DNA from: Albugo candida | Lineage: Eukaryota | Direction of reading: 5' to 3' | Assembly (NCBI GenBank): GCA_040437565.1 | Contig: JBDOQK010000028.1 | Span: forward strand, 124,001-188,000 | Length of the DNA stretch: 64,000 nt | Made by a program: the position numbers and the translations under genes | Part shown: positions 8,708-61,735 of the stretch, piece by piece | How the letters are laid out: every line of letters begins with the position of its first letter | Numbering within the stretch: position 1 is the first letter of the stretch | The notes under the pieces: model-generated | Told to the model about the DNA's origin: nothing | The model's input: the letters and a program-made list of their open reading frames with translations, nothing else | Database searches by the model: none

Positions 8708-8734
8708 TCAAATACGGGTTTTCTTGCTTATTCT

Positions 8735-12377: not shown

Positions 12378-12842
12378 TCAAATACGGGTTTTCTTGCTTA
12401 TTCTAAATTGAATGCTGAGCCATTTGTCGATTTACTTGAGATCGGATTCGAAGTGGTACTCTTGTAAGGAACATCCACCTTTCACATCATTTCGAACGGC
12501 CGCTATGGATTACCTGATAAGAATCCAGGGCTCCACTCTGAATCGAATGGAGGAAATGTGTCTAAACACTGTTGAAGCTACTTCGAAGTGTCTGTGGTGA
12601 CACTCTAAAAGCCTGAATCGATAGGAGTCCTTCGTCAGAATAGTAAAGAAGGATAGATCAAGGAGCGTCCCACCAATCAGACAAAAAATAGGGTGAAAGT
12701 AGTCTTGCTCATGAGGATTCTAGATTCAAATTAGAGAAAATCACGCGAAATGAAGGCAGAACGGGTACTAATACATGAATCGGCCTTCCCTGCAAGTACA
12801 CCCAGTCATAATAACGACTATGCAGAGTTGGCATAAAAGCTT

Positions 12843-34886: not shown

Positions 34887-35576
34887 GATGAACGTCACAG
34901 AAATAGTGTATTATCAAGACGTAAACCTAGCACCGTGTTTACTTTGTTTCTAATTTATTCTTTCAACACAAATGCATTATGCGGATGTGCTTTTACATAC
35001 ACAAAAGATTACCGCAGCTTTCTTACACTAGGGGGATAAGCAGCTTGGTACCCTCTACAAGGTCATGTAGTAACAGATTTCGAACCAGATTTTTTCGGAA
35101 TACTTCTGGTGTGCTTGGAATCTTTTGCACTCGAGATAATCAGTTCGCTTGATCCATCTGCTTGAGTGACTCGATGATGTGAAATTGAAAATCAATGAAC
35201 GAGAAGTTGGTGCGACCAAGTATACCACCTGGAGTGATGTCGAAATATATAAGCGACCAATTTCTGCAAATATAGCGGAGAGGATTGTGTAGACACCACT
35301 AACCACATCTCTCTCCTTCGTATTGGAGTTTAAATTAAACAAACTGCAGCTGGAGGCAACGCATTCATTCCACCAGCTCAACTAAAAAGTACGACATGTC
35401 GACTATCTTGTTCGTACCCGAAAAATGTCAGTTTTGAGCTTGTAGGATGTAGCAGGAATCAGATGCCTGCACTACTTGCCTATATATAACAATGCACTTT
35501 TATGAGATAAGCTCTTGCCCTTTTATCAAAAGATATAAATTTATATTATACCGCGCTATGAATTGCTGAATATACA

Positions 35577-38500
35577 TTACACATGTGCAGTAAGGGATGC
35601 ACGATGCCACGAGTTCGTAGCTGTACAAATGTACAAATAGGAAGAATCATAACTGATCATACCTCGAGTGCAACTCGACCCAGCGGTGATTGTTCCAAAA
35701 CTACCATCGAATATCACAGTCCCGCCTGTTAAAACGGTGTTGGGCGATTTCAACGTCATGCTGCTTGCACCATTAATTTCCATCGTGTTACCAGAAATAC
35801 TTGCTTGCGTTGCTGAAATTGCAACATTGCCTGATGTGGATGAGACGGAAATTATGTCTTTGTACCCATCATTTACGGTGAAGTCATGAAGCTCAACAGA
35901 CAAGTCTCCGTGTAATGTCGTCACGCCAGTGACCGTGACCGAAGTTGCCGAGGTAAGCTCGATAGATGAATCCGTTGAAGTAATTGATACAGCTTTGGCG
36001 CTCCCTGACAGTGTATTGGAAGAAACCGTTAGAAGTTTGGTGGATGATCCAGTTTGGACGGTAAAAGCTCCATTTGTTGGTCCAGATCCCACCTGCACGG
36101 CCACAGAGCCTCCAGTATTGCCATTGCCACCGTATATCTTCACATCGCCGCCACGGTCCATTCCCTCGCCTGCATGGATGATGGTTGAGCCACCAGTGCT
36201 GCTTTGGCTCGAGCTATTTCCTGCAGACAGCAGTAAATTCCCACCATTACCAACAGTACCGTTCCCGACTTGAAGCGACATATTTCCAGCCGAACCTCCA
36301 TCAGAAGTTCCTGTTTGTAAAGTGACATTTCCGCTCGTAGCATTCCATGCATTCTGAGACATCACCATGATATTTCCGCTTGGAAAAGATGGTAGGCCAT
36401 GCCCACTGCCTAAAGTCAACTGGCCTCCTGTAGCCCCTGAGCTATTTCCTCCTGTGATTATTACGTCTCCTCCACTGCTCGAGCCACCTGAACCACCGTG
36501 GATATCAACTGAACCTCCATAGACAGATCCATTTCCCCCAGCTAGCATTGCCCTTCCCCCCGGGCCATGCATACTGGATCCGGCTGATGCACTGACTGAT
36601 CCACCGGGTCCATCTTTAGTGCTGCCAACTTGAAGCCGCAAATCACCGCTTTGGCCTGAAGCGGTGTTACCGCTTGCAATATCCACCGCGCCAGTAGCTC
36701 CGGAAGAAGCATTCCCTGACTGGATTGATATATCCCCACTAACTGTTCCGCTAGTTTGTGGCCCAGTGTGCAAGAACAGCCTTCCACTAGATGATGAGTC
36801 ACTTTTTCCGGTCGTGATAGAAACGCTTCCACCATTTTCAATCGTACTAGACCCACTAACAAAAGATATGTCCCCACCGCTAGTACCGTAACCGGCAATC
36901 AATTTCATAGCACCTCCTGTTTGCGTGCTACTATTTCCAGTTGTTATTGTGATACCCCCTGCTTGTCCTAATGCTGAACTTCCACTGGCAATCAGAACCT
37001 CTCCGCTGCCTCGTTCACTTGCAAGACCTGATTTTAAAATCAAGGATCCTGTGGATGGAGAATCAGCTGTTGCGATATCGATATCACCACTCGACGAAGA
37101 GAGACTACCGCCACTCAGCATATGTAGCGAGCCACCCGGTGCAGATGAGCCATTACCAGTAATGAGCGATATATCGCCACCGTTTGACCCGCCTGCACCA
37201 GATTTAAGAAGTAGATTACCACCGCCATTTTGACCTGGAGTTGAACCAGCTACAAGCGACAAATTGCCAGCTTTGCCTATGCTGTTTGTTCCAATTGCTA
37301 AAAGCATATTTCCTCCTGAGTCTCCATTTGATGTACCTGTCGAAATAGTAATCGAGCCTGCATTTCCTACGGAAGTATTTCCACTGCTGAGTGTCAGATC
37401 TCCGGTCTTTGCTAACGAATTAGCTGACGAAATCACAACACTTCCAGAGTTTGTGTCTGATGAACCAGTCTGAATGATGACAGACCCACCACTTTCGGTA
37501 GCGGAGGACCCTGCAATCATTTTGACAGCTCCTCCAGGTCCTCCAGTACTTCTTCCACCGAAAAGTGATACTGATCCCCCATTTCCATCAATAGATTCTC
37601 CGGAAAAAAGAGACACATTACCACTTGACCCGCTTGTTGCTTTCCCACTATGTATTTCTAGACTACCTGAAGATATCCCTTGACTGCTAGAGATGATAAG
37701 ATCCCCACTTGTGAACATATTGCTCTGACCACTTGTGATACTGATAGAGCCGCCAGTAATATGGCCGCTACCAGCGGAGAGAGACAAATTTCCACCATTA
37801 TTACTGTTGCTACTACCTGCACTAATCGTAATTGGCCCACCGTGTCCTTGGTTAGTAGCACCGACGGCCAGAGTTATATTGCCGCTGTTTAGATCACTAG
37901 ACCCGCTTTTGATTATCACTGATCCCGACGAGCTTGTACCATTACCACTTACAAGGGATAGTGATCCCGATCCTCCAAGCAGAGCTGCAGAGGCTGTTTC
38001 CAAATTTATATTACCACTCATTAACCCACTTGAGCTTCCACTGAGAAAATTCAGATCTCCACCTTTACCATTGATTGCACTTGATCTACCAGATGTCAGA
38101 GTTAAGTCCCCACCCGAGAATGTGTCCGAAGCTCCGCTAGTCAATGAAATGATTCCCCCTTTGCCACCACTATCAGTAGTAGAACCGGCAGAGAAAATGA
38201 CATTGCCTCCATTGCCAGATCCACTACTACCCACTGAAAACATCATCCCTCCACTTGTTCCACCAGTTGACGATCCAGTTGATAGAATCATACTACCTCC
38301 CAAACCAACGCTGCTTGCACCCGTTTTCAGCACTACTGACCCACTTGTTGATCCATCTGCACTTGACAATGTCACATTGCCGCTTTTCGTGCTTGCNNNN
38401 NNNNNNNNNNNNNNNNNNNNNNNNNNNNNNNNNNNNNNNNNNNNNNNNNNNNNNNNNNNNNNNNNNNNNNNNNNNNNNNNNNNNNNNNNNNNNNNNTCCA

Positions 38501-41500
38501 GATCCACTACTACCCACTGAAAACATCATCCCTCCACTTGTTCCACCAGTTGACGATCCAGTTGATAGAATCATACTACCTCCCAAACCAACGCTGCTTG
38601 CACCCGTTTTCAGCACTACTGACCCACTTGTTGATCCATCTGCACTAGACAATGTCACATTGCCGCTTTTCGTGCTTGCTGAGCTACTTGTGCCACTTGA
38701 AATGGTCACCGCTCCTCCAGCTGTAGTTCCACTTCCACCAGACAAATCAAGTGTACCTCCTACATCACTGGCGCTTGTTCCACCTCGCATAACAAATGAC
38801 CCAGCTGGATCTTGCGTGCTGTCACCTGTAAACATACTTATATTCCCTGAAGCTCGGTTACCGCTTTTGCCAGTTCTGATGTACACAGATCCAGATTTAC
38901 CAGATGCTGAGTATCCTGTGTCAATGAGAATGTGCCCTGTATCTCCATCGATGCCTTGACTTGTATGTAGCGATATATTTCCACTGGAAGATGATGAGGA
39001 CGAACCGCTCGATAAAATTAGCTGTCCACCATTGCTTGAGTTGCTAGCACCCGATGATAACAAAAGATCTCCTCCAGGACTCGACCCACTGTGACCTACT
39101 CGGAATCGAATAATTCCAGCACGACCAGCAACTGACGAACCTGAGGCCATAATTAAATCTCCACTTGATCCCATGATGCTGTTTCCAGTCGTTAGAGAGA
39201 TGTTTCCCGTGCCCGAGGATACTGAGCTAGAAGGAGTACTGAGTGATAGGTCTCCAGTAGCGAATGTATCGCCCTCTCCACTGTTCAGCTGGATATTTCC
39301 ACCTTGCACACCACCCTTACCGGCTTGTATCTGAATTGAACCACCCGTTCCGGTACTGCTCATACCTGCTGTCAGACTTATCAGTCCGCCGCTTCCTTTT
39401 ATTCCATCTCCAACGCTTAGACCCAAATCTCCTCCAGCTCCTTCATTTCCTTCCCCGGTTTGCAAACGCATCGCGCCGGATGATTTTGTGGCGCTTTTAC
39501 CGCTCGCAAGTGTGATTGATCCTGATCTTCCCTGCTCGAAAGCATCCGCTGACTTTATACTGATATTCCCCGTAGTTGCGGACGTGGAACTCCCACTGGA
39601 GACGTTGATACTTCCTCCATCTTTCGAACCGTTTCCAGCGGATAGCGAGATGCGACCACCTTCACCAGTACTGCTTCCTCCAGCCAATAATGAAATGAAT
39701 CCTGTATTGCCTTTATTGGACGACCCGGTCGATAGGATAGCATCACCACTCTGACTACTAGCTGTGTTACCTGTCGAGAATTTTAAAGCTCCACTTCGTG
39801 CCATTTCCTCAGCACCGGCAGTTGCGATTACAATTCCACCACTCGCTTTCGTAGACCCAGTGTTACTCAAATTGACGATACCTGCGCCAGATGAATCACC
39901 CCTTCCCGACATGATGCTGACATTTCCGCCTGATCCACCTTTTGTCGAACCGCTGTTAATTGTTACAGTACCTCCGTTTCCAGAGGTCGTACTTCCTACA
40001 TTTAGACTTATGCTACCACCAGGTCCATTGCTTGTTTTGCCCGACATTAGCTTGACAGAACCTGAAGTAGGATTGGCGCTCCATCCATCATTGTTAGCCA
40101 GGGATCCACTGTAGATAGCACGTTCGTTATCGGGCGTTGATAATATGACATCTCCACTCTTCATTTCACTCAAACCGCTGGCGATAGACACACGACCACC
40201 TTGTTTGATCCCAGCGCCTGCTGATAAGGTGACATCACCCCCAATAATTCTTTGGGTGCTGTCGAAAAGAGACTGCTTTAGATTCCCATCAAAGGTTCGG
40301 TTGCCTACACTGATGTGAATTGATCCACTCGCATCATCGCTGTCTCCAGTGCTGATGAAAACATCTCCGGATACACCTTTCTTACCAGAACCCGTCACAA
40401 TATTGACAGCGCCAGAATGACCAGAATCTCCTCCATCATTCGTCGAAAGGCTGATATTGCCACTTGCACCATCATTACTCCTACCACTCCGCAAATTGAC
40501 TGATCCACCTATTCCTACACCATCGTTTATATCTCCACCATGCAGACTTATTGCCCCACCGAATCCTTTATTTCCAGATCCAGAGTGTAGAGCTATGGAT
40601 CCCGATCCACCTTTTTGGGCCTTGCCCGTAGTAATAGATACTGTCCCGCTTGAGCCATCAGAAGCGTGCCCCGTACTGGCAAATATATCACCACTCATAC
40701 CACTCAATCCTACAGTGGAAGTTGCAAACATGATGTCACCACCACCCTTATCAGAACCATGACCACTTTGCAGTCTGATGCTGCCACCTTGTGAGCCACT
40801 ACCACTAGTTAGTTGTATCGACCCACCGATCGAATCTAAACCAGAAGAATTTCCGGAATTAAGCTCGATGGAGCCTCCGACTACATCACTTCCGCTACCA
40901 GTATTCATGATTATGGAGCCACTCTTACCACCTTTGGTGGAGCCGGTAATCAACTCTATGTCTCCACTTGACCCCGAGGCCATCTTACCCGTCCGCCAGC
41001 TTCCGGAATCCTCATGACTTGGTCGAGCAGACTCTATTATTATGTTACCACTGCTGCCATAAACACCTCTACCGCTCTGAATATGTACGATTCCACCAGC
41101 AGCTGTAGCATCTGAAGTGTTTCCAGCCTTCATCGCTATACTCCCTCCTTTTCTGGCAATGGTATTCCCAACCGCGACTAGCAACTCTCCAGCCCTTCCG
41201 TCAGATGAATCTCCAGTACCAAGCTCGATCGAACCGGAAGTTCCGGCCTCGCTTGTACCAGTGTGAAAAGACAATTTTCCTGAATTTTGATGATGCGAGG
41301 CTTTAAACGTCTCTATTTCTACTTCTCCAGAAGCACGGTCCTGACTCCCACCAGATAAAATGGTTATATTCCCACCAGAAAGTGATCCCCATCCTCCTCT
41401 GATGATAGTATTACCTCCTACGAATGAACTGTTTCCACTAGACATCAAGAGATTACCACCAAGCGACCCACGACTCCTTCCGACACTTAGCATAATATTT

Positions 41501-44500
41501 CCTGCATGAGAGAGGTTCGAATTCCCCGTGCTAATCATAACGTTTCCGCTTGGGGTAGCCATAGAGTCCCCAGTACTGATTTTAACCAAGCCTGTGCTTC
41601 CGTCCCCAACCGCAGATGAAGACAGGATAGATATTGATCCACTATTTGATTCTGTGCTTTTACCAGTGTGCATTGAAATAGATCCACCTGCTTCTTCCAG
41701 ACTATCTCCGGCAACTAATCGAATCTCACCTCCTGTTCCAGATTTTCCTTTTCCAGTCTGCAAGGATATAGATCCCGCAGAATTTTTTGCCGAGTTTCCT
41801 GATCTGATTATGACCTCTCCACTCTTATGAGAAACTGTCTTGCCGGAAAAGATACTGATAGCTCCTGATGAACCAGTGTCGAGATTCGAATCAGAGCCGA
41901 GAAGTATGTCTCCTGAGCGTACCCGTCCAGTGCCAGTAGTAAGTTGAATACTTCCACCTATATGCTCCTTGCTTCGACCAGCGGATATAAAAGTGTTTCC
42001 TGCCGCCACTGTGCTGTCGCCTGAGCTTAGTTCGATGCTACTGCCATTTTGCGCGATACTTGATCCAGGTGCCATTTTGATATTGCCTGCTCGCAACCCG
42101 GCTCCACCCGTAGCGATCGTTAAATTTCCTGAATTCAGACCAGCTTCACCGCTCGTAAGTGACAGACTTCCAGATTGCCCTAAACTGCTCGTGTTGCCTG
42201 TGCTTATGGAAATTTTACCACTCGAATAGTTTCCCGGTCCTGACCGTAGCTCAATCAATCCGCTTCTATCCAAAGAAGTACTTGAGATCACGGCAACATT
42301 GCCCCCTGATTCTGACGACGAATAGCCTGCACCGACTTCTATATCACCACTTTTACCGGTCTTAGTATCACCCGTTCGAATGAGAATTTTGCCAGAATCA
42401 CCATCTTCAGCTAAACCAGATCTAAGACTGAGCTTTCCGCTTTCACGCTCGGCTGAAGCTGTGGAAACGAAGAGACTTCCTGATACTTCTTGACTTGATC
42501 CAGATGTAATGTTGACAGCTCCTCCAAGCTTACCAGTACCACCCTGCATCTGTAAGCTCCCCCCGGTAGATTCTACTGAAGACCCTCCAATCAGATGTAC
42601 ATCACCAGCATGATTCTGTTTGTTCTTTCCAGATTTGAGAGTCACACTTGTAGCAGGCCCATTCATAACATCGCCGTTGCCTATCGTGATCTTCCCTGCC
42701 GAGCCACCAGCCGAGTTCCCACTGACCATAGTGATGCTTCCAGAGTTTCCAATAGATGGTAAATTTGAGCTTGCAATTTTTATGCTCCCGCTAGAGCCCG
42801 TGTAGCCATTTCCGTGACCGCTGATTACTTGAATTTCACCAGATGTATCTCCATTTCCACTGCGCACCAATATGGAACCACCAAGCTTTTTACCATAACC
42901 TGACTGCAGAATTAAATTCCCGCTTGCACCTTGACTTGCATTTCCCGATTCTAATGCTAAATCACCACTACTTTGTTCAGCTGTTCCAGAGAAAAGTTCG
43001 ATTTTCCCCGACTTAGGGCTATGTGCTGTTTTGAAAAGAAAACTTCCTGATGTAGACGATTGGCTCCTCCCTGACTGAAGTTGAATACCTCCACCTATTG
43101 ACTTGTCTGAATCTCCACCATACATACGAACTCCTCCACTGGGACCCATTGAGCTTCCTGCCGATAAAGTCAAGAATCCCGAGCTATTTGATCCATTACC
43201 TGATCCCAAATTGATATTACCCGAGTTTGATGAAATACCGCTTGACATCACTATCCTGCCAGATTTGCCGTCCTTTGCTGATCCGGTTTGCAAGAGAAGA
43301 TGGCCTGAATTGTGGAGGGAATCGGGAGCTGTAGACAACCTTGTATCACCACTATCACGCTCAATGCTCGTTCCTGATTCTATCTGAACTGAGCCTCCTT
43401 TTCTTGAAGTTGACATCCCACCTATCAGAACGAGATCACCAACTCCTAGGGATGAATTTCCGGCTGAGATGATAACAGACCCACTATTGGAATGAGAAAC
43501 CCCAGAGCTTATCTCAACATCACCACTTCCACCTTGCTGTGAAACTCCGCTCGCCAGACGAAGCTGACCACTTTTTTTACCTCGGCCTGAAAGAATGGAC
43601 ACACGTCCTCCGATCTTGTTAGATTCGCCACTTTTGATATCAACGTCACCTCCGTCAACTTTATCACTTGATCCAGCTATGATTTTGATATTGCCAGAAT
43701 CGTAAGTGCCATTTCCAGAGAGAATGGCAACATTTCCAGCAAACTCTGAGTTTTCGGATCCACTTTTTAGTACAATGCTACCTCCCTTTCCATGTTTAGC
43801 ACTTCCACTTACTAAACGTATGTCGCCAGTACTTTGATCCTTTTGAGAGGTCACCGCAGTAGAAAGTTCAATGATTCCACTCTCACCTCTCCCACTAATG
43901 AGCCTAATCGAGCCACCATCCGCATTTTCGAAATTCGTTGCATCAATATTCACACTTCCCGATCTACCAGCCGAAGCGTCTCCGGACTTAATAGTAAGAT
44001 TGCCTCCTTTCGATACACCAGTCCCACCGACGATATTGGTCGTACCGCCCGTGTCGGCCTTCCCACCACTTGCTAACAGCATACCACCCATGGCAGCTAT
44101 GCCTTCATTCGACCCCGCGTTGATGACCACACCACCTGACAATGCTGGATCAGTAGATAAACCTGACTCAAGGTATATATTTCCGGGTGCTGATAAAGAC
44201 TTCCCCGTTTTCAGTGATAAAGAACCCGAGCCGAAGCGACTTGATACTGTTGAGATTTGGACACTTCCCGAAGACCTGGAATCTGAGCTACCTGAGTTTA
44301 TGATTATGTCACCACCTGGTTCAGGACCGGATGATCCTGCTGAGATATTCACGGCTCCACCTTGACCGTTCGAATCTCCTCCAGCCAAATTCAGCTCTCC
44401 AGACAATTTACGTGAGAAACCTGTGATAATCCGTATTCCACCTGACTTATGTGTTTCAGTGTCGTCATTCGTTCCTGAGCTGATCTCGATATAGCCGGAT

Positions 44501-47500
44501 TTATCTCTTCTAGAAATACCAGAATGTAATAGAATGTTACCACCAGGCTGAGACGAGAAAGATCTGCCTGCAGATAGATTGATGTCTCCATTACGACCTC
44601 CATATCCGTCTCCAACACGAAGCTGGATACCTCCAGTGCCTTTATTCACAGAGTCCCCGGTGGTCAACGCAACTGCGCCACTCTCCCCACTCTTTGCTAT
44701 GCTGGAGCCAACCAAGACATTTCCGCTTGCGCCCCACTTACCAGGTTTTGCCGAAGTGATATTGATGGAACCACTTGCGGCTGCAGCGCCCGACCCTGAA
44801 GTGAAGGAAATGGACCCACCGGTACCGTTTGCTTGCATCACATCACCAGCTTTTATTTTGACATTTCCTCCCATAGAGCTACTTTCACCCGCGCTCATGA
44901 TGATCTCACCTGCGCTCGATGCGGGTGCATCTCCAGAAAGTATCTTTATCGCTCCTGATTTACCACCAGCTGCAGAACCACTATTGAACGTGATCGACCC
45001 TGAATGCGGCAATTCAATGTCTGCATCAGCTGTGGAGACTTGAACGTCACCTGTGTTTGTCTTTGTTCTTGGGCTTATATTGAATCGCCTATGACGTGCA
45101 TGGAGGGCTGCAACCAAATCGAGTATGATTTTCTGTTTATCCAGCTGATGAAATTTCTTGATCGAAAATCCGGACTCCTTGAGTGCAAATTCCTCGGCCA
45201 CTGTTACATATTCCGGAAAAACTTGGGCAGCCTGTTGAGCAATGACACCTCGAACCACCTCATCTTTCATTCCTCTGATGCGCTGCCATTCATCCGTGTA
45301 TCGATACTGCTTGATTTCCAGTTTCTGCAGCCGCTGTAGAATCTCTTCTTCATCCACGTCATCTATCATATGCTTAACTCTTCGATCGGATGGAGAGATA
45401 ACTTGTGGAATCTGTGCTGGCACTTGACTGACGATCATGTCTGGGCGGATACGCATGATAATGCCGTCGCTAACGTTTGTGTCGGAGATCTCGAGAAGAG
45501 TTTCGTTGCTCGATCGTAACTTTGTAAACTCACCATGTAACGTGACATTGTTGTTCATACTGTACAGCATAGCTTCTCCATCTCGGTTTAGTTGTATACC
45601 CGATTTATTGCTTGGTAGATGAGCACCAAATGAAACCCCACTGTCCCCTTCACCACCGACAACTTCGATATCATAGTTCTGATTCGAGTTTGCTGCACTC
45701 CCCAAATATATCCGCCCATTTTGAGCTTGAGTTGAGTTTCCACCTTGTATCATGACTTCGCCTCCAGTCCCCATTTCTGAAAAACCACCAGACAGAAGCA
45801 CGGATCCCCCATTTCTCTGTCCATGAGAATGGCCACCTATAACCTCCGCGTTTCCTCCATCCGAAAGGATCGAGTTACCTCCGTGTAGAGATGTTTTACC
45901 TCCTTCACCGGCGACACTTGACCCAGCAGCAATATTGACAATACCACCGTAACCAGATCCAGAACTGCTGCCACCCATAATTTTTATCGTACCGGCGTCT
46001 TTCAAGTCTGTCTTTCCAGATGATAAAATCACGTCACCGGAATGACCTCCTTTAGTGGCTGCGGACGATTCAACTGTAATTCGGCTGCTACTTTCCTTAC
46101 CACTTCCGCTCTTCAAAGTAATGCCTCCTCCCGCTGCTTCTTCACTCTTTCCACCTAATATGTTGATATTTCCAGTTTGATGATTACTCCCACCTGTTTT
46201 GATATCAATATTCCCACTATAAGAATCATCTGCGTCCCCAGAAGCGATATGGACATTCCCGGTATGCGATGATGATGTGCCGCTTTTGAGAGTGATGTTC
46301 CCGCTGACACCTCCAGCATAGCTTGTCGAGGTGCTTCTCAAATCTACTTCTCCACTCGATAGCTTTCCACTACCCGATAAAATCTTCACACTGCCCCCAA
46401 GATAACTTTCACTTGACCCCGCGCTCAAAAGTACATCTCCTCCCGATACCATGCCGGAGTTCTCACTGGCAATTCCACCAGTCAGATTAATACTACCTGC
46501 AGTACCCTGTTTTGCCCATGAATCTCCTCCCGCGATCTTCACGCTTGCTCCTGATAGACCCGAGCTCGTACCAGCTGAAAGCCTGATTTCACCTGATTTT
46601 GCAAGTGCGTGCGATTCTGTGCGAAGTTCTAATTCACCACCTTGGTCCGACAAAATTCTGACTGATCCTCCAATTTCAGAATTGCTACTAGTCCCACTGC
46701 GCACCATTACATCTCCAGCTCTGGAAAGAGTCGAGTTACCACTACTAATAACAATACTCCCACTCGATCCCTTTGTAGTTAGCCCTGTAAGTAGATGTAA
46801 CGACCCTGAATCACCATGTCGGCTCAAGCCAGTGCCTACATTTACTGAGCCACTTCCAAAGGATTTGGCACCACTCATAACACTTACCCCACCCGAGACT
46901 GTCTCAGCACTTTCGCCACTACGGATTTCAATTGATCCACCGTGGTCGGATCCTGCACTGCTACCACCAACTAGGGACAGTTTTCCTCCTGAAGCATATT
47001 TGCTGGACCCGCCATGAATACTGATAGTCCCAGAGGAGCCACCACCAGCTCCTCCAGTCGATATACTGACATTCCCGCTTTGCCCATCAAAAACTTTCCC
47101 ACTAGATACGCTTAGGTATCCACTGATTCCATTTCCAGCAACATCAGATGTCACTAGACGAAGTTGTCCGCTCCTGCCACTATCCATTTGAGCACTTCCA
47201 CTTTTGAAAAGAATCTCTCCACCTTGTAATACGCCTGATCCTCCAGCCATTACGACTTTGCCAGCTTCAGATTCAGAATTGAATGTATCGCCCCCAATTA
47301 CGTGAACATGACCTGCGGAGAAACCAGGCTTTGAAAGCCTTGAGAGAGATGTGCCTCCTTGTATCGTTATATTTCCGCCTGATCCAGCTACGCTATCGCC
47401 GCCTCGTAAGTCGGTCCTTCCTGCACGGAGAGTTGATTGACCCGTAGTGAGAGTTAGGTTCCCAGAGTACCGCTTGGATGACTTTCCAGAAGTGATGAAG

Positions 47501-50500
47501 ATACTCCCTGAATCTATATCGTCCTTACTACCAAGATAGACTCCACCGCTACCCTTTTTGCCAGTTCCTGAGATGATGTGAACCGAGCCTCCAATATAAC
47601 TTAGGCTATCTCCACCGGAAATACTTGTATTACCGCCAGCAGCCTCCGTCCCTTCCATTACCGTGTGCATACCATCGACGTGATCATTATTTCCTCCTTT
47701 AATCATTACATGACCACTTCTATGACCTGCGATCCCTGCACTTATGGTCATATTTCCGCTGTGTCCATGTCGCGCTGCTCCCGTGGAAATCTTCATCGAG
47801 CCTGAATCTGCGCCTTTACTCAGACCGCTTCTAATGTAAATATTTCCTGTCGATGAAGTATGATCATCATCACCAGTCTGAATGTGCATATGACCAGATG
47901 TCGACATTGTGCTTTGGCCCGTCGCAAGGGATAAGTTACCACTTGACGATTTCATCGACTCGCCGCTTGAGATTTGGACATTTGCACCTGCTTGACCTTC
48001 CGATGATCCGGGATTGACTAATACGTCTCCGGCTCTACTTCGACTTGGTCCACTTTCAATACGTATCATCCCACTCGAATGTTGACTTGATCCGCTTGTG
48101 AGCTTCACATCTCCAGTACGCCCCTCATTACTATTACCAGTGATCAGTGTAATGGCACCGCTTTCACTCAGACCTGAACCGCTAAGGACACGCACTGCTC
48201 CCCCCGTACTTTTCCAGGATGTTCCTGCAGTCAATCTTAGATCGCCTCCATCTCCGACTTTGTTAGTGGAACCTTCAATCTTGACTTGTTGCCCAGCTTT
48301 CTTGCTGCTGATTGTACCAGCTTGTAATAGAATGTTAGAGTTACTTGGGCTTGATTCCATCTGATCTGTGCTACTCTGTACGATACTTATTGCACCATTT
48401 GATCCAGCATTGAGCAGAATGCTACCGGAAGATCCATTTGATGAACGACCTCCTTGTAATACCACATCCCCTGGCACTCCACCGAAGGAGGAACCAGCAG
48501 ATAGTTTTATATCACCCGCTTTGCTATGCCGTCCGGAAGTGCCTCCCATCAAGGATATCTTGCCAGATACATGCCCTTTGGCTATTGTACTACCAGTTTG
48601 TATATCAACATCGGGAGATGAGTCCTTAGAAGTATCTCCGGTCGCTAACGAGATTTTCCCAGAGATTGCTCTATACGATAAGCTATGCCCGCTCTCAATC
48701 GTGACATTGCCCGATTCCTCCTTCTCAGAAGAGCGTACAGAGGATACTAGGATACCGCTGGATCGACCACTTTGAGCTGAGCGTAATACAAGATCCCCTC
48801 CTTGCCTCACACCTTTTCCACCGCTAAGTGTGATACTTCCTCCAGTCTCGCCTTCACCGGCTTCTATCACAACGTTGCCACTAGAGCCATGTTCTGTGTA
48901 GCCGCTTTGAATATTTACATCTCCGGATTTTGTTGATGCAACGCCAGAAAGAATGGAAATATTACCTGTTTTTTTCTTTATGATGTCAGATTGCGTCGAA
49001 ACAACAATATCTCCAGTATGCATACTATGTGACTGACTCTGTAGCTGTACGTCGACTGGAGTAGAAACATTGTCGGATGGATTAACTTTGAAAGTTCCTA
49101 GAACTGAGATACTCGACGAGGAAAGNNNNNNNNNNNNNNNNNNNNNNNNNNNNNNNNNNNNNNNNNNNNNNNNNNNNNNNNNNNNNNNNNNNNNNNNNNN
49201 NNNNNNNNNNNNNNNNNNNNNNNNNTGAATATTTACATCTCCGGATTTTGTTGATGCAACGCCAGAAAGAATGGAAATATTACCTGTTTTTTTCTTTATG
49301 ATGTCAGATTGCGTCGAAACAACAATATCTCCAGTATGCATACTATGTGACTGACTCTGTAGCTGTACGTCGACTGGAGTAGAAACATTGTCGGATGGAT
49401 TAACTTTGAAAGTTCCTAGAACTGAGATACTCGACGAGGAAAGTCCTATCCGACCATTTTTCAAGTCCGAATTGATAAATATGCTCCCTGAGCGATTTGA
49501 TTTGGATTGGCCAGCTTCTAGTTTGATATCACCAGTGGACAAAGCAGAATCTGGGGTCCGTAGATGGAGATCACCCGACGTCGTCGCTGTTCTTCCTGTG
49601 GTGACTCGAATGGTAGATGGAGCAATTCCTATTTTGGTTTCTTCAAGGCTAGATCCTCCGCTTATTCTGATCGATCCTGAATGATTTTCCGAGTCTCCAG
49701 TCTTCACCACCAAATCACCGCTTCTTCCTGAACTGGTTTTCCCGGTCTGGATCAGTATATTCCCGGAATTTGCGCCCTCTTGACTGCGACTAAATGTACC
49801 CGAGTTTGCAGTTGTGATCTCAACGTCTCCACTTTTCTTTGGATTATTTGCTGTCACTTTGAATCGCTTGTGCTGGGAGTGTAAAGCGGCTACCAAATCG
49901 ATAGATATTTGCTGTTTATTGACTTCATGGAATTGATCAAAACTAAAATTTTTTTCGGGTAATTCAATCTTTGAAACAGAGACATACTCGGGAAATGTAT
50001 CACCAACTTGTTGGGCAATAACACCGCGTACGGGAAGATCCGGTATTCCTCGAATTTGACGCCACAGCTCGGAGTAGCGATAATTTTTGATTTCCAGGGT
50101 CTGCAGTCGCTGAAGGATCTCATCCTCATCCACATCTTGAATGTCCACTTTAATTCTTCTATCCGATGGATACACAATCTCGGTAAATTGAGCTTGCACA
50201 TGCGAAATTAATTTGTTTGGTTGAACCCTCATGACAACATTTCCGGGAACTGAGGTTTCGCTATGTGAAAGTCTGAACTCTCCCGAGTTCAAACCGATAT
50301 TCAGTTGATTACCCGCTTGCAATGCCAGTGAAGAATTGCGGGTAGTTTTGATAGAAATGGAGTTGTCCCCATGTATGTTCATGTGACTCGAGCCATCAGC
50401 ACTTCGAATTGAGACACTACCATTTTCTTGACCCAGTCCTGGCCTTAGCTCGATGCTTCCTCCATATCCTTCGTGATTCGAGTTGCCTGCAGTGATCGAT

Positions 50501-53500
50501 ACAGTCCCGGAAACAGTTTTTGAAGTACCTGTGCTTATCTTGACATCCCCGCTCGATTTCCCTGATCCGGTAGACACTATGGAGTCACCCGAAGTTCCAC
50601 TTTCTATACCTGCACCTCCGCTTTTCAATTCTGCAGTACCTGTCACTGCTTCCGTCGAAGCTCCCGTAAAAATCGAAATATTCCCGGTTTGTGCAGAGCT
50701 GGATGTCGCAATTTCGATCGATCCACTTGCTCCTCCATTCCCAGTCAGCAATTTCAATGTCCCGCCTGTGTTAGATTGCGAGCTGTTTCCACTTTGGAGA
50801 AGTACCACTCCACCCTTATTTTCCTCAGCGTTACCTCCAAGGAGTAAAATTGATCCGACACGGCCTTTGGGTGAATCACCGGATGAAATTTTGACATCAC
50901 CACTGGTACCAGACTTTGTAGACCCTGATACGAACCTTAGCGTACCGGAAGCTCCGTACTCTGTCACGCCAGTTGCCACCGTCATTTCTCCAGAACTTTG
51001 ATTTTCTATACCAGTGTGTGTTTGAAGAAGTACGCTCCCACTAGAATGACCTTGTCCGGAGATCATTTCGATCGTCCCACCATCGCTAGCANNNNNNNNN
51101 NNNNNNNNNNNNNNNNNNNNNNNNNNNNNNNNNNNNNNNNNNNNNNNNNNNNNNNNNNNNNNNNNNNNNNNNNNNNNNNNNNNNNNNNNNNGGGTGAATC
51201 ACCGGATGAAATTTTGACATCACCACTGGTACCAGACTTTGTAGACCCTGATACGAACCTTAGCGTACCGGAAGCTCCGTACTCTGTCACGCCAGTTGCC
51301 ACCGTCATTTCTCCAGAACTTTGATTTTCTATACCAGTGTGTGTTTGAAGAAGTACGCTCCCACTAGAATGACCTTGTCCGGAGATCATTTCGATCGTCC
51401 CACCATCGCTAGCAAAATCCGTGCTACCCGAACCTAGCTGGCCATGATCAAAAGACCGGTCACCCCCATGTATAAAGACAGTCCCTGGCTGTTCTTTATA
51501 AGTACTCCCAGTCGTCAGTGTCAAAGTGCCCGAACTACTAGCCAACGATTCACCGGTCTGTAATCTCATTTCACCTGATTTTGCCGATGCCATCGCTTTG
51601 GCAGAACTCAGACTAATCATCCCACTTTGATGACCCAAGCTCGAGCCACTATGTATCGTGACATTCCCTCCATCCCTTTGACCTATACCACCATATAATG
51701 CTAGGCTTCCTCCATCTGAATAATTACTCGAACCGCCTCTGAGCACCATTTTCCCTCCAGATAGCTTAGAACCAGTACCAGCACTCAAGTAGACACTTCC
51801 ACTTCGTTTAGCCGGAGAAGGGAGTGGATTATTTGTAGAATTGGGGGAGCCATGAGAATCTCCATTTCTTATAATGATATCTCCAGCTGCTGTGCTCTTT
51901 CCAGTCCCAATCACGACCCTCCCGCTAGTAAGGTGAGCTGAAAGTCCCGTCTTGAATAATATATCGCCACTTGCTCCTCGAGTAGCTTCAGTTGAGGCGG
52001 ATGTAAGTTTCAAGTTCCCCGTTGTATCAGAACTTGATCCAGAGGTCAGTATTATCTCTCCTCCCAGCCCGGTCGGTGCACTGCCTGCAAGTATCGAGAC
52101 ATTCCCACCGGTGCCCGAACCAAGCCGTACTGACAGCCCACCACCCCCGCGATTCATACTTTGACCCGTAGCGATGTGAATTGCTCCTGGTCTTCCTTTG
52201 GTGGTAGAACCAGAAGCAATGCTAACCCTTCCAGTTGGACCAGTAGTAGAGTCTCCAGAATGTAATTCTACCGAGCCCGATTCTTTTGAATGTGTCCTTC
52301 CACTCGAAATTTTTGTGTCTCCACTCCTTCCAGATGATTGAGCTTCCGATGTCTTGATAAGAACGTCACCGCTGGTGAATTCACTACTTGTGCCACTTTG
52401 TAGCGCTATCGACCCGCCTTTTGATGCAATAGCCTTCCCCCCCAGAACATAGATATCGCCACCTTTGTCACTACTTGATGCACGACCGTAACTCGAGCCA
52501 CCACTGAGTATGACCGCACCACCTTGCGCATTCTCCTTGAACAAACCGTCGTGTGCATCACCAGCTGAGATAAGAATTTGTCCACCTATTGCTTTTCTTC
52601 TGTTGGTCGTTTTTCCTACAGATAGCGTTATATCTGCACCTCGTTCATGATTTGATTCTCCAGTCAGGATCAGTATCTCTCCCGCAGCATTGGAAGCAGA
52701 ATCTCCTGTATTGATGCTCAACAGTCCTGACTGATCAATTGAGGTGCCTGTTTTTATAGACATTCCACCAGAACGGATTCCCGTAGACGTAGCCATACTG
52801 ATGTTCCCACTAGAAGCCACATCGGAGGTGCCCGACAATATATTCACATGTCCTCCGGACAAAGATGATTTTGCTTTTCCTGCCATCAGTGAAACGTTCC
52901 CTCCGCTGAATCCCTTCCCTTCTCCAACAGCAATTCTAATTGATCCTGCTACCCCCGTACTTGCTTTGCCCGTTCCAAGTGTCAAGCTGCCAGAATTATG
53001 TGAGCTACTATCTCCAGTACATAGTGAAACTGAACCACTCGATCCATGCCTTCCTGACGTCGCAGTATGCATGAGAAGACTTCCGCTATTAGAGTCGTCT
53101 GAATTTCCTGAAAACATCGCAATCGATCCTCCGGTTCCACTCATGGCTTTTCCACCATAAATTGTGACATTGCCAGCTATATCTCGTGCATTATAGCGAC
53201 CGAACGAGGCTCCTCCTAGAATTTCTACATTTCCACCTTCTCCACCGTTGTGCACATCCTTTGCCTTATTGGGACCTGCACTTATTGAAATAGAGCCTCC
53301 ACTTGCATGGGATTCTTCGGTACTTCCAGCAAGTAGACTAATGCCACCACCATTTACTTGGGACGCATTGCCAGCATGTATGCCAATGTCTCCAACAGTT
53401 CCGCTCTTTGAAGTCCCAGTCTGAATATAGACGTGACCGGTTCCTGCTAGCTTTTGTCCATGGCCTGTACGTATGGATATGTTTCCACTCAAGCCCGAGC

Positions 53501-56500
53501 TCTTGGCTTCTGCACTAATAATTTCAACATCCCCGCTGGATGAAGAAGAACTCATTCCCGAGAGAAGTTGCACACTACCTCCGACACCATCACCGTTGAC
53601 ATCACCAGCCTGGATGTAGGTATCTCCACCTACTTTGGTGGATCCAGTACCAACTTTGAGATTAATGTGTCCAGCTCTTCCTGTTCTAGAAGATCCAGTA
53701 CTGACGTTCACATTTCCAGATGGGCCTGACATCGAAAATCCCGTGCTCAGAGTTACCGATCCACTTTCCCCTCCCCCCGTAGCAGAATGAATGCTTATAG
53801 TGCCGCTACTTCCGGATGCCGAAGCACCTGATACCAGGTCAATCGTACCTCCAGCCACATTAGATGTTGATCCAGCTTCTACTAGTATATTCGAGGTACC
53901 TCTACCACCATATCCGCCGCTGATAGTAATGTTTCCTGCAGACCCGCTCAGCGCGTCGCCCGTTTGGAGAGTAAGAACGCCAGTGTCAGAAGTGGCAGAA
54001 TTACCACTCGTGATTCGTACTGCTCCACTAACAATGCTTCTATCATTTTCAGTGTTTTTTGTCGCAATAGATATTTCTCCACTCTCCTGAGACATTCTAC
54101 CTCCTGACGATATGGAAATAGAGCCTCCGCTGGTTCCTGTTGACTCACCTCCTGAAATACTAACATTGCCACCTCTAGCTTTCTGCCATTGTCGACCTTG
54201 AGAGTCACCTCCGGATATGAATACATCACCTCCATACGTTCCATATTGTGTCTTTTTATTCGTTCCATTTCCACCCATTATGTTGACAGCGCCTGCATGT
54301 GATGACGATGCTGCTGAATCTCCGCTATACAGGAAAACATTCCCTCCATTTCCAGCCTGGCTAGAACCGACATTGATTTTGATATCTCCTCCCTGTTTAT
54401 CAGCAGAAGATCCCGTACTGAGCAATATTGACCCACTCATTCCTCTTGACGAATTGCCAGTAACTATTGCCATGCTACCACTTGATCCTTTTTTTCCTGA
54501 TTCTGACGTATAAATGTTAACGTCCCCGCTATTCAGAGCATCACTATAACCAGATGCTAGCGTGACGCCTCCACCCGATTGAAAAGAACCTGCAGTATCA
54601 CCCGCTCGTATTTTGATACTCCCTCCGTCCATATTACTGCTTTTCCCAGCTATGAGGCCAATGGATCCACTAGATCCCGTGAGCGAAGGACCTGTTGATA
54701 ATGAGATATCGCCCGATTTTATTTTACTACTTTGACCTGTGGCGATTTCTATTTTCCCACTTGAGCCATAATATGCAGAGTCACTGGTACCGATGGTGAC
54801 CGATCCACTAGATGTTCTCTTACTTTTGCCACTAATGATATTGACATCCCCTCCAGAGCTTGCGCGTGCGGATCCACCAGATAAGGAAATTTCACCAGCT
54901 ACACGTTGAAAACATCTTTTTAGCAAAATCATAACTTTAATGAAATGCACCAACCTTTATCGTCAGATCCACCTCCGTTTGCAGAGCCTCCCTCGATCAA
55001 GACCCTTCCACCCTTTCCACCGTTCAGATTCTGAGTACTACTCCCGTGACCAGCAACCAATTCGATATCGCCACCTTTTACGGAGCCGTAAGTCGCTTCA
55101 CCAGCTGACATATGCAAATTGCCACCATCGCCCTTGTTGCCACTACCGACAGTAATTCGAATGTCACCACCTGCACCCGACTTGCTTCGACCTGTACTTA
55201 AATCCATCGCTCCACTCGGTCCAAAAGTGGTGTTTCCTGTCCGGATCGTCACTCTTCCAGATACACCACGAGACCCAGCATTGGCGGTTTGCATTTCTAT
55301 GCCACCGCTCGACGCCGCTATACTTTTTCCCGAATAAATCTCGATCTTTCCCCCCGAGGAGGTAGCGGATGTTCCACCTTCTAGATGTAGCTGCCCCCCC
55401 GTATCCTTATTCGCGTTCTTCCCTGAAGCTTCTCCACCAAATATTATAATGGAACCTCCATCCCCGCCATTCGAAGTTTGCTTGCTTTTACCACTACCAG
55501 CACTCAAATTGATGGACCCACCGCTGGCCGAATCTACGACATACATCAAGAAGAAAAATCTACCATGATTTGTCAGATTACATACTTGCGCTTGAGTCTC
55601 CAGCGGAGATATTGACACTTCCACCATCGCCCGTACCTCCGGTTCCAGCAGATAGTGCAATGTTTCCTGCATGCCCTTTCAAAGCATGCCCACTCTGTAC
55701 ACTGATACTTCCCGAGTCGGCAGTAGACGATGACCCGGACATGATTGAAACAAATCCGGACGATCCTCTTATATCGGAGGAAGCGGTGTTAAGAGATAGA
55801 TCTCCACTAGATGCTGCCGTTGAAGCACCGGTCGTGATGCTTACTCTGCCTCCTGTAGCTTTTGTAGTTGTGTTGCCTGCTTGCAAATCAATATCACCAC
55901 CATTTCCTTTGTCACCGGTTCCGACAAGTATTTGTATGGAGCCTCCAGTGCCTTTATTCGAAAAACCGGTTGTAAGAGACAATTTACCAGAGTTTCCATA
56001 TGATGCATTGCCGGTGCTAAGTAGCAAAGCGCCAGTGACCCCTTTGCCAGCAGTATTTGCCGTCGTGATCTGTATGCGCCCACTCGATGAAACCTGACTG
56101 TAACCAGAATGCATCCTAATATCACCGCCCGATCCCGTACGACTATACCCAGCTTCTACTCGTACATCTCCCCCTTCATTGTGCTTCATTCCGCCTTGAG
56201 AGGCTCCTCCAAAAATGGCGACGTGGCCACCATCACCAGAATTTTTATTTTGACCTTCACCACCAGTTAGTGTGATTGAGCCACCTCTGGTCGATGACTT
56301 CGAGATTGTCGCACCTGCGGAGATATCCACATCTCCTCCATTACCAGTAGAACCGGTTCCAACCAAAAGTGATAATTTTCCTCCATATCCACCAGCTGCA
56401 GTTCCACTTTTGAGTGTTATACCTCCTGATTCACCTTTATCTGTGGTACCACTTTCCAAAACTATACTTCCACTAGGACCAATCGCACCAGCTTTAGCCG

Positions 56501-59500
56501 TTCTCAAAGCTACATCTCCACTTGAAGCTTTCTCACTGTCACCAGAAAGTATACTTATAGACCCTCCGCTTCGATTGTCTGATGTAGAGCCTCCTTCAAT
56601 AGCGACAAATCCCCCTTCCCCGATACTGCCTTTACCAGAAGCCAAAATGATTTGTCCAGATCGTCCATACTGTGCATTTCCGGTTGAAACAAANNNNNNN
56701 NNNNNNNNNNNNNNNNNNNNNNNNNNNNNNNNNNNNNNNNNNNNNNNNNNNNNNNNNNNNNNNNNNNNNNNNNNNNNNNNNNNNNNNNNNNNNGACAAGT
56801 ATTTGTATGGAGCCTCCAGTGCCTTTATTCGAAAAACCGGTTGTAAGAGACAATTTACCAGAGTTTCCATATGATGCATTGCCGGTGCTAAGTAGCAAAG
56901 CGCCAGTGACCCCTTTGCCAGCAGTATTTGCCGTCGTGATCTGTATGCGCCCACTCGATGAAACCTGACTGTAACCAGAATGCATCCTAATATCACCGCC
57001 CGATCCCGTACGACTATACCCAGCTTCTACTCGTACATCTCCCCCTTCATTGTGCTTCATTCCGCCTTGAGAGGCTCCTCCAAAAATGGCGACGTGGCCA
57101 CCATCACCAGAATTTTTATTTTGACCTTCACCACCAGTTAGTGTGATTGAGCCACCTCTGGTCGATGACTTCGAGATTGTCGCACCTGCGGAGATATCCA
57201 CATCTCCTCCATTACCAGTAGAACCGGTTCCAACCAAAAGTGATAATTTTCCTCCATATCCACCAGCTGCAGTTCCACTTTTGAGTGTTATACCTCCTGA
57301 TTCACCTTTATCTGTGGTACCACTTTCCAAAACTATACTTCCACTAGGACCAATCGCACCAGCTTTAGCCGTTCTCAAAGCTACATCTCCACTTGAAGCT
57401 TTCTCACTGTCACCAGAAAGTATACTTATAGACCCTCCGCTTCGATTGTCTGATGTAGAGCCTCCTTCAATAGCGACAAATCCCCCTTCCCCGATACTGC
57501 CTTTACCAGAAGCCAAAATGATTTGTCCAGATCGTCCATACTGTGCATTTCCGGTTGAAACAAATACAGCGCCAGAATTCCCATATGTAGTATCTCCGGT
57601 TTGTAGGTCGATTATGCCACTAACACCTTTTGCACCAGAGGCAGCCGTCGCGATATTAATGGAGCCACTGGATGCGGAGATCCCCTTGCCGGATAGAAGG
57701 GTAACGGATCCTCCATATCCTGCGGCGGCACTGCCACCTTCGACTCTGACATGTCCCCCATTGTCCAATGAGTTCATGCCACGAGCGTGACCTCCCTTGA
57801 TGTTGACGATACCCCCGTCTCCACCATCAGTCGAGTGGGAAGATGAACCTTCACCACCAGCTATATCGATTGTTCCTCCAGAGTATCTCGCGGCAGACGT
57901 TCTTCCAGCAGTCAGCGCTAAGTCACCTCCAGCTTCTCGATCTCCTCCACCAACCGTGATCGATATAGTGCCAGCTCTACCGGAATTTGCATTTCCTGAT
58001 TCGATGGAGATGTCGCCTGTATCACCAGCAGCACTATCACCAGTTTGGAGAGTGACGGTTCCAGTGCCACCATTTCCACTCTTACTGGAAGAAGCTGAAG
58101 CAATTTCGACTTTACCGCTCGATCTTTTAGCACTGAGACCAGATTGAAGCAGTACGCTACCTCCTATTCCTTCCGTTGCCTTTCCACCTTCAAGATGTAA
58201 GGACCCAGCACGATCATTGGGGGATGTGCCTCGAGACTCGCCAGCCTTGATCAAGACAAGCCCACCGTCACCACCATCACCAAAATTTACACTTGTACCG
58301 GCACCTGCAGCGATCTCTACATTTCCTCCTCGACTAGCTATCGCATTGGAAGATCCGGATTGCAGAGAAATTGTACCACCATCACCCACCGTGTTGTTTC
58401 CAGTATTGATAAATACATTGCCTGCCATGTGACTGGAATGGCCAGTGACTAAGTGAATCGATCCTGCTTTCAAACTAGACTTTCCTGTCTGTAACATGAT
58501 TCTGCCTGATTCGGAGTTCGATTTTGCGCTTTTCAAAAAGATATTGCCACTTGAACTACTTGCAGATGAACCCCCTAATATGATTGCATCGCCACCATGA
58601 GATAAAATACTTGATCCACCACCCAGCACCAATCGTCCTCCATCACCTTCTGCTGAATATCCTCCTTTGATTTCAACGGACCCACCTTGACCTACTCCCA
58701 GCAAGGAAGACTGCATGCCGTCCCCTTCACCACCTGAGATAGATACATGTCCACCTTTACCACCATTTTGTGAACGTCCAGATCCAGCAAGTATTGTTAT
58801 GTTCCCTCCTTGTTGATTGTCTCGTTGTGCATTCCCGCTTTGAAGTAAAACAGAACCCACGGTACCATTTGTGCTTGTTCCACTTTTTATACTGATAGTA
58901 CCACTGTCTTGCATCGTGGTATTTCCAGTAAAAATCATGACATCCCCGGATATCCCTCGCGCAGCATTACCAGTGCTCATGACAATTGAGGCAGTTTTCG
59001 ATGACATTAAATCATCGGATGTAGCTAGCTCCAATAGTCCGCTCGAATCAGTACCGCTTCCCCCAGTGGTTATCCGAACCTTTCCACCAGCACCTTCCTC
59101 ACTTGTGCCACCACTAATCTCCACATTTCCCGCGGTACCAGTCTTTGAATCCCCCCCTTTGATACGTATATTACCAGCATGATTCGATGCTGAGCTTCCT
59201 GTGAGAATCTCTAGGTCGCCTGTTTGATTGTGCGCACTCCCCGTGGATATTACAATCCGTCCAGTTTGCCCATTTCCACTTGACGAAGCAGACCCAATAG
59301 CGACTGTTCCGCTAAAACCATCCGCACTCGTTCCACTCAAGAATTTAAGGGAACCCCCTGTGCCGTTTCTACTTTTGCCTCCGAAGATGTTCACTTCTCC
59401 ACCGCTTGATGATGATTGCATGCCGGAAGACTGGCCCCCGCCTATTGTGACGTCTCCACCCAGCGATGCTTCATCATTCAATCCACCACCGGCGGTCAAT

Positions 59501-60918: not shown

Positions 60919-61735
60919 ACTGTACGATATGACTCCTGATCAATGTTCTGGATGTATTTTCAGTCGGGCAACAACTCACTCAGAATTTGCTGAGTAGATG
61001 CTTTTATGAATACCTCACGCAATTTTCGCGCGTATAGAGGCTTTCAAGTCTGATTTGGTTGAATCTTCGGATCCAAATCTTCCGAAGCGTCACTCTATCA
61101 AATAAATTTCCTAACCTGAGAAGATATCTATTTCGGGGTGACGCTGTGGAAGATTTGAAATCCTTGGACGCAAAGACTTATATTACAATGCAGCTCTAGG
61201 GTCGTTTCGAAATTTGAAAACTTTGAAGCCGACCCGAAAGCGGGCTCGGGTCACGAACACTTGTCGACGTGACGTTGAAGAACGCGCTTCTATGCACTAT
61301 CTTCCTTCAATTGCGCGGAAAGTTTACATTTCTTTAAGGCTAAATGTAACGTTTGCGGCAATGTGGGGAAGAATAATGCTTTTTGATTGTCAAATTTAAT
61401 AAGGTTGCGTTTTGGATTCGTCACGGTAATGACCTAATTTTGAATATCTAAAAAAATTATCTTCCATATACTGTGTCGCTTAGATAAAAATAAATAAATT
61501 ACGTCAGACCATTCAGTCACATCACGTGACAAAGCTGACTACAATCATGACATTTCAAGCGTATATAATTCGAGGGATGTTGCACACTCGTTGATTAATC
61601 ACTGAAATTTGGTGACAGCCGTGTAACAATTCAAACCTTCAAATGCATATATTCAGGACTATAAAAGACTACCATTCATGCACAGCGTCGCTGATCAAAA
61701 GCTTTGCTCAGCTGGTAATTTCACAATATATTGCT

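Follow-up and report, generated by a model that had tools for sequence, protein, structure and literature searches.

The window analyzed here comprises 64,000 nucleotides (nt) of Albugo candida contig JBDOQK010000028.1 (assembly GCA_040437565.1, positions 124,001 to 188,000 of the forward strand) and contains, on the minus strand (35577..60918), a giant gene predicted to encode a fiber-like protein of 7,812 amino acids (aa) with two internal ICA domains. Raw listing of open reading frames (ORFs) shows the gene as six long pieces on the minus strand, from 60918 to 35577, which become one ORF after collapse of four scaffold artifacts and removal of two introns. The breaks between pieces are due to four intragenic 100-N gaps and two gap-free frame changes that correspond to short introns. 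A first-pass annotation, made by a model from the sequence alone, had proposed that both ICA domains retain an intact Ser-Lys dyad and that the protein is cut twice by its own domains. The residue numbers it gave for the two serines, 3151 and 4637, and its total of 7,812 aa were reproduced exactly by the collapsed and spliced model, and its arithmetic for the expected chains (~3150, ~1486 and ~3176 aa) is correct.

The first module, a neck plus ICA domain, occupies 49810..50280 on the minus strand (model residues 3113-3269), and the second 45031..45510, also minus (residues 4597-4756). Pfam PF13884 (Peptidase_S74) matched two stretches of the central piece of the gene at 75.2 bits versus a 22-bit cutoff (E 4.8e-21), with module 2 as the best stretch (P0001 residues 1893-1954), and a sensitive scan of the 7,812-aa model detected exactly two modules, both internal. 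In both, no more than about 15 residues separate the ICA helix from the repeat arm that comes next. Predicted nucleophile Ser3151 (50164..50166, minus strand) lies in the motif PSDRRIK with a predicted cut between Pro3150 and Ser3151, and Lys3156 (50149..50151, minus) is the predicted general base of this dyad. Its equivalents in module 2 are Ser4637 (45388..45390, minus) in PSDRRVK, with a predicted cut at Pro4636/Ser4637, and Lys4642 (45373..45375, minus). PSDRR[IV]K, YRY, GVIAQQ, FPEYV and DLVAALH were all found in both copies where the first-pass annotation had placed them. Its claim of homologous flanks also held, both upstream (MRVQPNKLISHVQAQFTEIVYP versus MRIRPDMIVSQVPAQIPQVISP) and downstream (KRF..SGDVEITTA versus RRF..TGDVQVSTA), as did the duplication of a neck-ICA unit that it had drawn from them: 221-aa stretches of the two modules align with 45% identity over 201 aa (E 6e-65, well above what chance would give), an alignment that takes in the upstream neck and the first downstream repeats. 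Over 136 core columns identity is 53%. Module 1 shares 73-74% identity with Phytophthora infestans (PITG_01491) and Nothophytophthora fragments; their clade has a support of 0.98 in a tree restricted to rows with at least 115 of 137 columns covered (61 of the 155 aligned). Because module 1 is nearer to these fragments than to module 2, the duplication is old. A recent tandem duplication or an assembly copy was rejected, the modules being merely 45-53% identical.

By sequence, the best solved relative is the ICA domain of MyRF (7dc3), which module 2 alone matched at E 1.8e-9. A family profile of 44 sequences reached the same structure at 2e-16, with phage ICA structures at 0.05-0.9. An AlphaFold2 (AF2) model of module 1 and its flanks (pLDDT 86.1, pTM 0.71) again gave 7dc3 as the top Foldseek match (E 1.6e-7, target TM-score 0.71, root-mean-square deviation 2.2 Å over 115 columns), followed by the endoNF chaperone (3gw6), the T5 L-shaped tail fiber with its chaperone (4uw8) and GA-1 (3gud). 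Evidence for the fold comes from the module 1 model, and module 2 is tied in by the 53% core identity. Profile and fold searches alike assign the segments to ICA/Peptidase_S74 and not to an unrelated fold.

Passages of a published study of MyRF (PMC8326128) report that the protein is cut between P586 and S587, that S587A or K592A abolishes cleavage, that R590, Y615, Y617, I637, Q639, F666 and other residues are associated with partial or shifted cleavage, and that K671 adjoins the reaction center; they also give the endoNF dyad as S911/K916 and describe MyRF trimerization as driven by the C-terminal coiled coil of the ICA domain. Ser and Lys of both modules align to MyRF S587 and K592, with Ala standing at 587 in the crystallized chain. 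This alignment bears out the first-pass description of the P-S-D context as MYRF-like, with a cut N-terminal to Ser. As read from the alignment, both modules retain counterparts of R590, Y615, Y617, I637, Q639, F666 and K671, which lie within the motifs SDRR.K, YRY, GVIAQQ and F-H-x-[VL]-[ND]-K. Judged by these residues, both modules appear fully active for the predicted self-cleavage.

A homotrimer model of a 291-aa module 1 piece scored 0.92 (0.92, 0.92 and 0.91 in separate runs), and the best of three controls scored 0.00. In a calibration made with two copies rather than three, 21 of 30 solved homo-pairs but none of 23 solved single chains reached the mark; of eukaryotic proteins 17 of 29 did so, with just 1 of 7 among those that had no older solved relative. 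The trimer runs share at least 95% of contacts, with partner pLDDT of at least 86. Three segments make up the interface: 13-123 (end of the arm plus neck), 196-213 (C-terminal helix) and 221-282 (beginning of the following arm). Such an interface fits chains intertwined on both sides of the ICA domain. The pass may stem from the model's having memorized the MYRF and endoNF trimers that are already solved; it shows likeness, not binding.

Outside the modules, the predicted protein is composed largely of repeats. The N-terminus (60475..60918, minus strand) opens with a hydrophobic stretch that by eye resembles a signal, then continues as a Cys-rich region (Cys residues at positions 37-148) with two PSI domains (plexin repeat, PF01437; E 1e-6, 29.4 bits versus a 23.1-bit cutoff, in two stretches), which point to an extracellular protein. 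Arm 1 (50347..60351, minus) contains about 2,900 aa of repeats, and its span holds both introns and two of the scaffold artifacts. Arm 2 (45511..49809, minus) continues the repeat pattern for about 1,330 aa and holds the artifact at 49126-49443. Arm 3 (35577..45030, minus) contributes about 2,850 aa of repeats and a non-repeat C-terminal end (...CTRGMISYDSSYLYICTATNSWHRASLTAHV). All arms have a period of 15 residues with the consensus [SG]-G-x-[IV]-x-[LI]-x-[ST]-G-x-S-x-x-G-x and a composition of roughly 20% Gly and 19% Ser; an Atlas search with arm sequence returned only unnamed clusters at low recognition.

The non-repeat C-terminus of about 50 aa (window 35580-35750; ...GMISYDSSYLYICTATNSWHRASL...) weakly matches the last positions of two phage profiles, phrog_21017 (function unknown; 1.2e-4) and phrog_17312 (tail protein; 3e-3), and might be a phage-fiber-like tip or a folding nucleus for arm 3. 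Searches with the C-terminal 240 aa gave nothing convincing in the PDB (nanobody-type noise), no Pfam match, no homolog of 132-420 aa and none among the retrieved loci or proteins.

The continuity of the gene depends on how the assembly is read. Of the eight 100-N gaps in the window, four fall within the giant gene and seven are flanked by duplicated contig ends. Within the gene these duplicates measure 182, 218, 223 or 771 nt; three pairs are identical and the 182-nt pair has one mismatch. They are unmerged contig overlaps. The corresponding artifacts, each a 100-N gap with a duplicated contig end, lie at 38397-38679, 49126-49443 (where the repeated end is 218 nt), 51092-51414 and 56694-57564. 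Scripted reconstruction by collapse of these four restores the reading frame at every one and yields 23.4 kb without a stop. Intron 1 (55534..55585, minus, 52 nt) and intron 2 (54899..54954, minus, 56 nt) both have GT..AG borders; the first shifts the frame by 1 and the second restores it, their summed length being a multiple of three. Independent contigs support the collapses by joining across the gaps. A single 8,647-nt contig of sequencing run X1, which is possibly the window's own source, extends from 47843 to beyond 57700 and spans three gaps (junctions 48907>49226, 50868>51192 and 55922>56794), and the junction 50868>51192 also occurs in a contig of run X6, which derives from a separate study and sample. 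The comparison covered these three of the four intragenic gaps, the one at 38397 lying outside the compared stretch. Just one gap falls between the two Ser codons, and it is bridged by X1.

Strain differences in the compared stretch amount to seven single-base changes, six synonymous and one replacing Cys2307 with Ser, a pattern that looks like that of a gene under purifying selection, in a small sample. Low-depth X6 contigs also carry two single-nucleotide indels relative to the window, one insertion and one deletion, within arm 2 (46509 and 48200; depths 4.6 and 2.4). Both are probably assembly errors of that run; if genuine, they would shift the frame.

A search with module 2 against 1.84 billion cluster representatives recovered 400 proteins at E<=1e-3, 112 at <=1e-10 and 30 at <=1e-30, most of them fragments. 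Named relatives belong to P. infestans, P. sojae, P. capsici, Nothophytophthora and Aphanomyces euteiches, and true MYRF proteins, with NDT80, S74 and MYRF_ICA domains, rank lower among the matches at about E 1e-7 to 1e-8. Several modules occur together in P0003 (three in 1,767 aa) and P0004 (two in 920 aa). No module-bearing protein of 2,341-7,450 aa turned up in a collection of 5.8 billion sequences, and a search for relatives of 388-2,000 aa gave three fragments only. The full architecture is thus not on record in that collection, and the short database entries are probably fragments of the same kind of giant gene.

Metagenomes, scanned with a narrower family alignment (A2), provided further multi-module examples: 7 of 27 loci had at least two modules in one ORF. 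That giant proteins with several ICA modules form a family, and that the host is a eukaryote, are points the first-pass annotation had not made. ORF 2-15235 of locus L004 (GC 68%) has four modules in 5,078 aa and runs off the locus at both ends. Its modules alternate between Ser-less and Ser+Lys forms, and the two active-type copies, 3,540 nt apart, open with one and the same 35-aa string, suggesting that an arm-ICA unit was recently duplicated in tandem. Six loci (L011, L012, L013, L015, L016 and L018) share the motif pair SPSDRRIKK and YSSDERIKE about 1,915 aa apart, both modules being Ser+Lys, and probably represent one gene seen in several samples. One of them, L013 (GC 57%), has further ORFs of Gly/Ser arm on the same strand upstream and downstream; its gene is probably more than 20 kb long, with introns, and from another eukaryote. 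The ORFs that flank metagenome modules have the same Gly/Ser arm type, and in L007 a PSI-like segment lies about 2,550 aa upstream of the ICA domain, as in arm 1 of the giant protein.

We took a census of the dyad across the 150 listed matches plus the two modules of the window, a set of 155 domain rows, 123 of which cover the Ser column. Both Ser and Lys are present in 97 of the 123 modules. The other 26 have no Ser (Ala in 19, another residue in 7), and Lys is kept in 12 of these and lost in 14. No Ser-bearing module is without Lys (Fisher p 1e-11, an indicative value since the rows are relatives). Loss of Lys just where Ser has been lost argues that the dyad is kept for catalysis.

Genes around the giant gene are of ordinary eukaryotic kinds. 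ORFs of the window include an ALG6/ALG8-family glycosyltransferase, Beclin (APG6), ERGIC/ERV, RCC1, ankyrin and Sel1 proteins, two BT1 transporters and a DnaJ protein, with housekeeping genes on both sides of the giant gene. These neighbors, the two spliceosomal-type introns and the presence of relatives in several oomycete genera mark the giant gene as most probably a cellular gene of the oomycete, not of a phage; a phage or prophage origin was rejected on the eukaryotic context. Just upstream of the giant gene, short ORF pieces at 61700-62750 (minus strand) show an LHWYHH motif and hydrophobic segments. By eye they resemble a putative fatty-acid elongase (ELO-type) gene split by several short introns. 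The DnaJ domain encoded at 32547-34898 (minus) is matched in two stretches, the first ending at profile position 33 of 63, and may contain another short intron or frame change. Across the window, the duplicates at gaps are identical or nearly so and range from 59 to 3,570 nt, the largest being 5568-9137, repeated as 9238-12807. It doubles two ORF pairs (6739-7662 = 10409-11332 and 7919-8707 = 11589-12377), which are scaffolding artifacts rather than gene duplications. The other gaps flanked by duplicates are at 20535, 32382, 38397, 49126, 51092 and 56694, and the gap at 14142 showed no duplicated ends at the threshold used.

We consider double autocleavage into three trimeric fibers the best reading of the giant gene, and a reasonably probable one. 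The oomycete product would be a secreted homotrimeric giant fiber made as a polyprotein, laid out as a signal-like start, two PSI domains, arm 1, neck and ICA1, arm 2, neck and ICA2, arm 3 and a small C-terminal end. In the endoplasmic reticulum (ER), both ICA modules would trimerize via their C-terminal helices, bring the three chains into register and seed the folding of the arms on either side. These arms most likely form inter-chain (triple) beta-helices and not single-chain solenoids. Once a trimer had formed, each Ser-Lys dyad would cut the preceding Pro/Ser bond (3150/3151 and 4636/4637), giving three trimeric fibers of 3,150, 1,486 and 3,176 aa. The analysis itself shows the gene model, the identity and fold of the domains, the conservation of catalytically relevant residues, the pattern across the family and a modeled trimer; secretion, the arm fold, the cleavage itself and the separation of the pieces we infer.

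A number of observations weigh against this scheme. Support for cleavage consists throughout of sequence, models and analogy, and the signal peptide is assigned by eye alone. No Pfam family matched the arms, and the AF2 monomer of a 300-aa arm piece, from an input alignment of 17 arm pieces, is extended with almost no secondary structure (pLDDT 68.4), a model compatible with an inter-chain beta-helix and no demonstration of one. The sensitive scan found no third ICA module in arm 3, so arms are not strictly dependent on an ICA domain at their C-terminal side. Among the listed runs that contain the gene, none is on record as RNA, and no read in public runs spans the junction of intron 1 or 2; runs X19 and X20, whose RNA status is a guess, gave short contigs (173-293 nt) that map to the gene, in part to the ICA2 region, and none crosses an intron. 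Finally, 26 of 121 modules of relatives have no Ser, among them all but the first module of P0003 and of P0004, and half of the four in L004. Their persistence indicates that an ICA module is not automatically a cutter and that cutting is optional in the family, whose conserved ICA role may be trimerization or chaperoning.

Alternatively, the modules may be internal nodes for trimerization and chain register that help the very long arms to fold, with no cut, one cut, or pieces that stay together, and a mature fiber that is continuous, or nicked yet intact. We regard this as possible, though less probable than double cleavage. It draws on the fact that Ser-less modules, 14 of which have lost Lys as well, sit in open frames, that P0003, P0004 and L004 combine Ser-bearing and Ser-less modules in one protein, that the modeled trimer contacts flank the ICA domain on both sides, such that a module could nucleate the downstream arm, and that trimerization of MyRF is itself attributed to the coiled coil of its ICA domain in the passages cited above. 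Against it, both modules of the A. candida protein keep Ser, Lys and seven other residues relevant to cleavage in MyRF, the P. infestans and Nothophytophthora counterparts of module 1 retain PSDRRIK, and Lys loss accompanies Ser loss only, which suggests selection for catalysis in modules that have both residues. Far less probable is a fiber gene of an integrated polinton-like or giant virus in which ICA domains serve virion fiber maturation. ICA domains are typical of viral fibers, polinton-like viruses of protists are reported to carry them on modular proteins that reach 3.9k aa, viral clusters are among the nearest by features in the Atlas, and the C-terminal end has its weak match to a phage tail protein profile. 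However, the gene has housekeeping eukaryotic neighbors on both sides, two GT..AG introns and counterparts in several oomycete genera; a scan of 2.9 million viral contigs yielded merely three distant loci with 26-30% identity; the best phage matches reach at most 39% identity (E 2e-7 or worse); and polinton-like virus proteins are described with single copies, often C-terminal.

The gaps also raise the prospect of an artifact, in which the two ICA domains come from wrongly joined contigs or from adjacent but distinct genes. A window with eight 100-N gaps, seven with duplicated ends and four intragenic, and raw ORFs in six pieces give it a footing, yet it is scarcely credible given a frame restored at all four gaps and stop-free over 23.4 kb, contigs from X1 and X6 that run across three of the junctions, including the sole gap between the Ser codons, and modules too different, at 45-53% identity, to be assembly copies.

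Double autocleavage would set the giant protein apart from the ICA proteins known so far. MYRF/MrfA provides the closest ICA domain by sequence and fold and shares both the P/S-D cleavage context and the internal position, which places the ICA domain on the downstream fragment after cutting. MYRF cleavage depends on trimerization, according to published work. In contrast to the giant protein, which has two ICA domains, is of extracellular type and carries thousands of fiber-repeat residues on both sides of them, MYRF is an ER-anchored transcription factor with one. True MYRF relatives among our matches show all three Pfam domains, and Pfam searches with the giant gene pieces found neither PF05224 (NDT80/PhoG) nor PF13887 (MYRF_ICA) at E<=0.01; no transmembrane segment was seen after the ICA domain on reading the sequence by eye, no predictor being used. 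Membership in MYRF was rejected on these three grounds: no NDT80, no PF13887 match and no membrane anchor.

Phage fibers such as the endoNF/K1F endosialidase, the T5 L-shaped tail fiber and the GA-1 neck appendage belong to the same fold family, and in them the chaperone folds the upstream trimeric beta-helical fiber and then removes itself at a Ser-Lys dyad. Their ICA domain is discarded after use and, as the first-pass annotation had stated, single and C-terminal, in line with PHROG tail-fiber profiles that match the module through their last ~100 positions. The giant protein instead has two internal domains, each before another arm, is encoded by a eukaryotic gene with introns and shares no more than 39% identity with phage copies. 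A phage-type tail fiber was rejected on the two internal modules (3113-3269 and 4597-4756 of 7,812 aa), the cellular context and the introns. Polinton-like virus fibers, as published, are likewise large, modular, eukaryote-associated proteins with Peptidase_S74; they differ in being viral, with a single and often C-terminal ICA domain and with laminin-G, collagen or adenovirus-fiber modules, whereas the giant gene is chromosomal and has its own unnamed Gly/Ser repeat and two internal ICA domains. Annotated oomycete fragments include P. infestans PITG_01491 ('Peptidase S74 domain-containing protein', 392 aa), which groups with module 1 at 73% core identity and is its probable counterpart, albeit as a short fragment entry versus a 7,812-aa gene. 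We found no paper on multi-ICA cellular proteins or on this oomycete family in the open literature, supplements excluded; by title, the listed publications on Peptidase_S74 concern phage, contractile injection systems, polinton-like viruses or unrelated subjects, those on intramolecular chaperones and oomycetes treat other matters, and none concerns PITG_01491.

The ICA domain has two known settings: phage fibers, where it is a disposable chaperone at the C-terminus, and MYRF, where a single internal copy does the cutting. Current oomycete annotations record the present family as short fragments only. We offer tentatively, as a rather improbable generalization, that multi-ICA giant fibers are an old, widespread and undescribed class of eukaryotic extracellular fiber polyproteins, in which ICA domains act as folding nuclei and programmable break points that set both the length and the number of fibers made from one gene, and some modules, the Ser-less copies, act as fixed joints. 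That the stramenopile products form a thin surface or flagellar-hair filament is pure speculation. The finding also bears on the origin of the MYRF ICA domain: because the family profile matches MyRF at 2e-16 and phage structures at 0.05 or worse, MYRF may have taken its stalk and ICA domain from such a eukaryotic fiber rather than directly from phage. The giant protein is a natural test bed for the folding by ICA domains of sequence on both sides, and matched active-type and Ser-less modules in its relatives separate chaperoning from cutting. If double autocleavage is true, the A. candida gene would represent a third use of the ICA domain, one in which a single cellular gene makes several trimeric fibers by self-processing.

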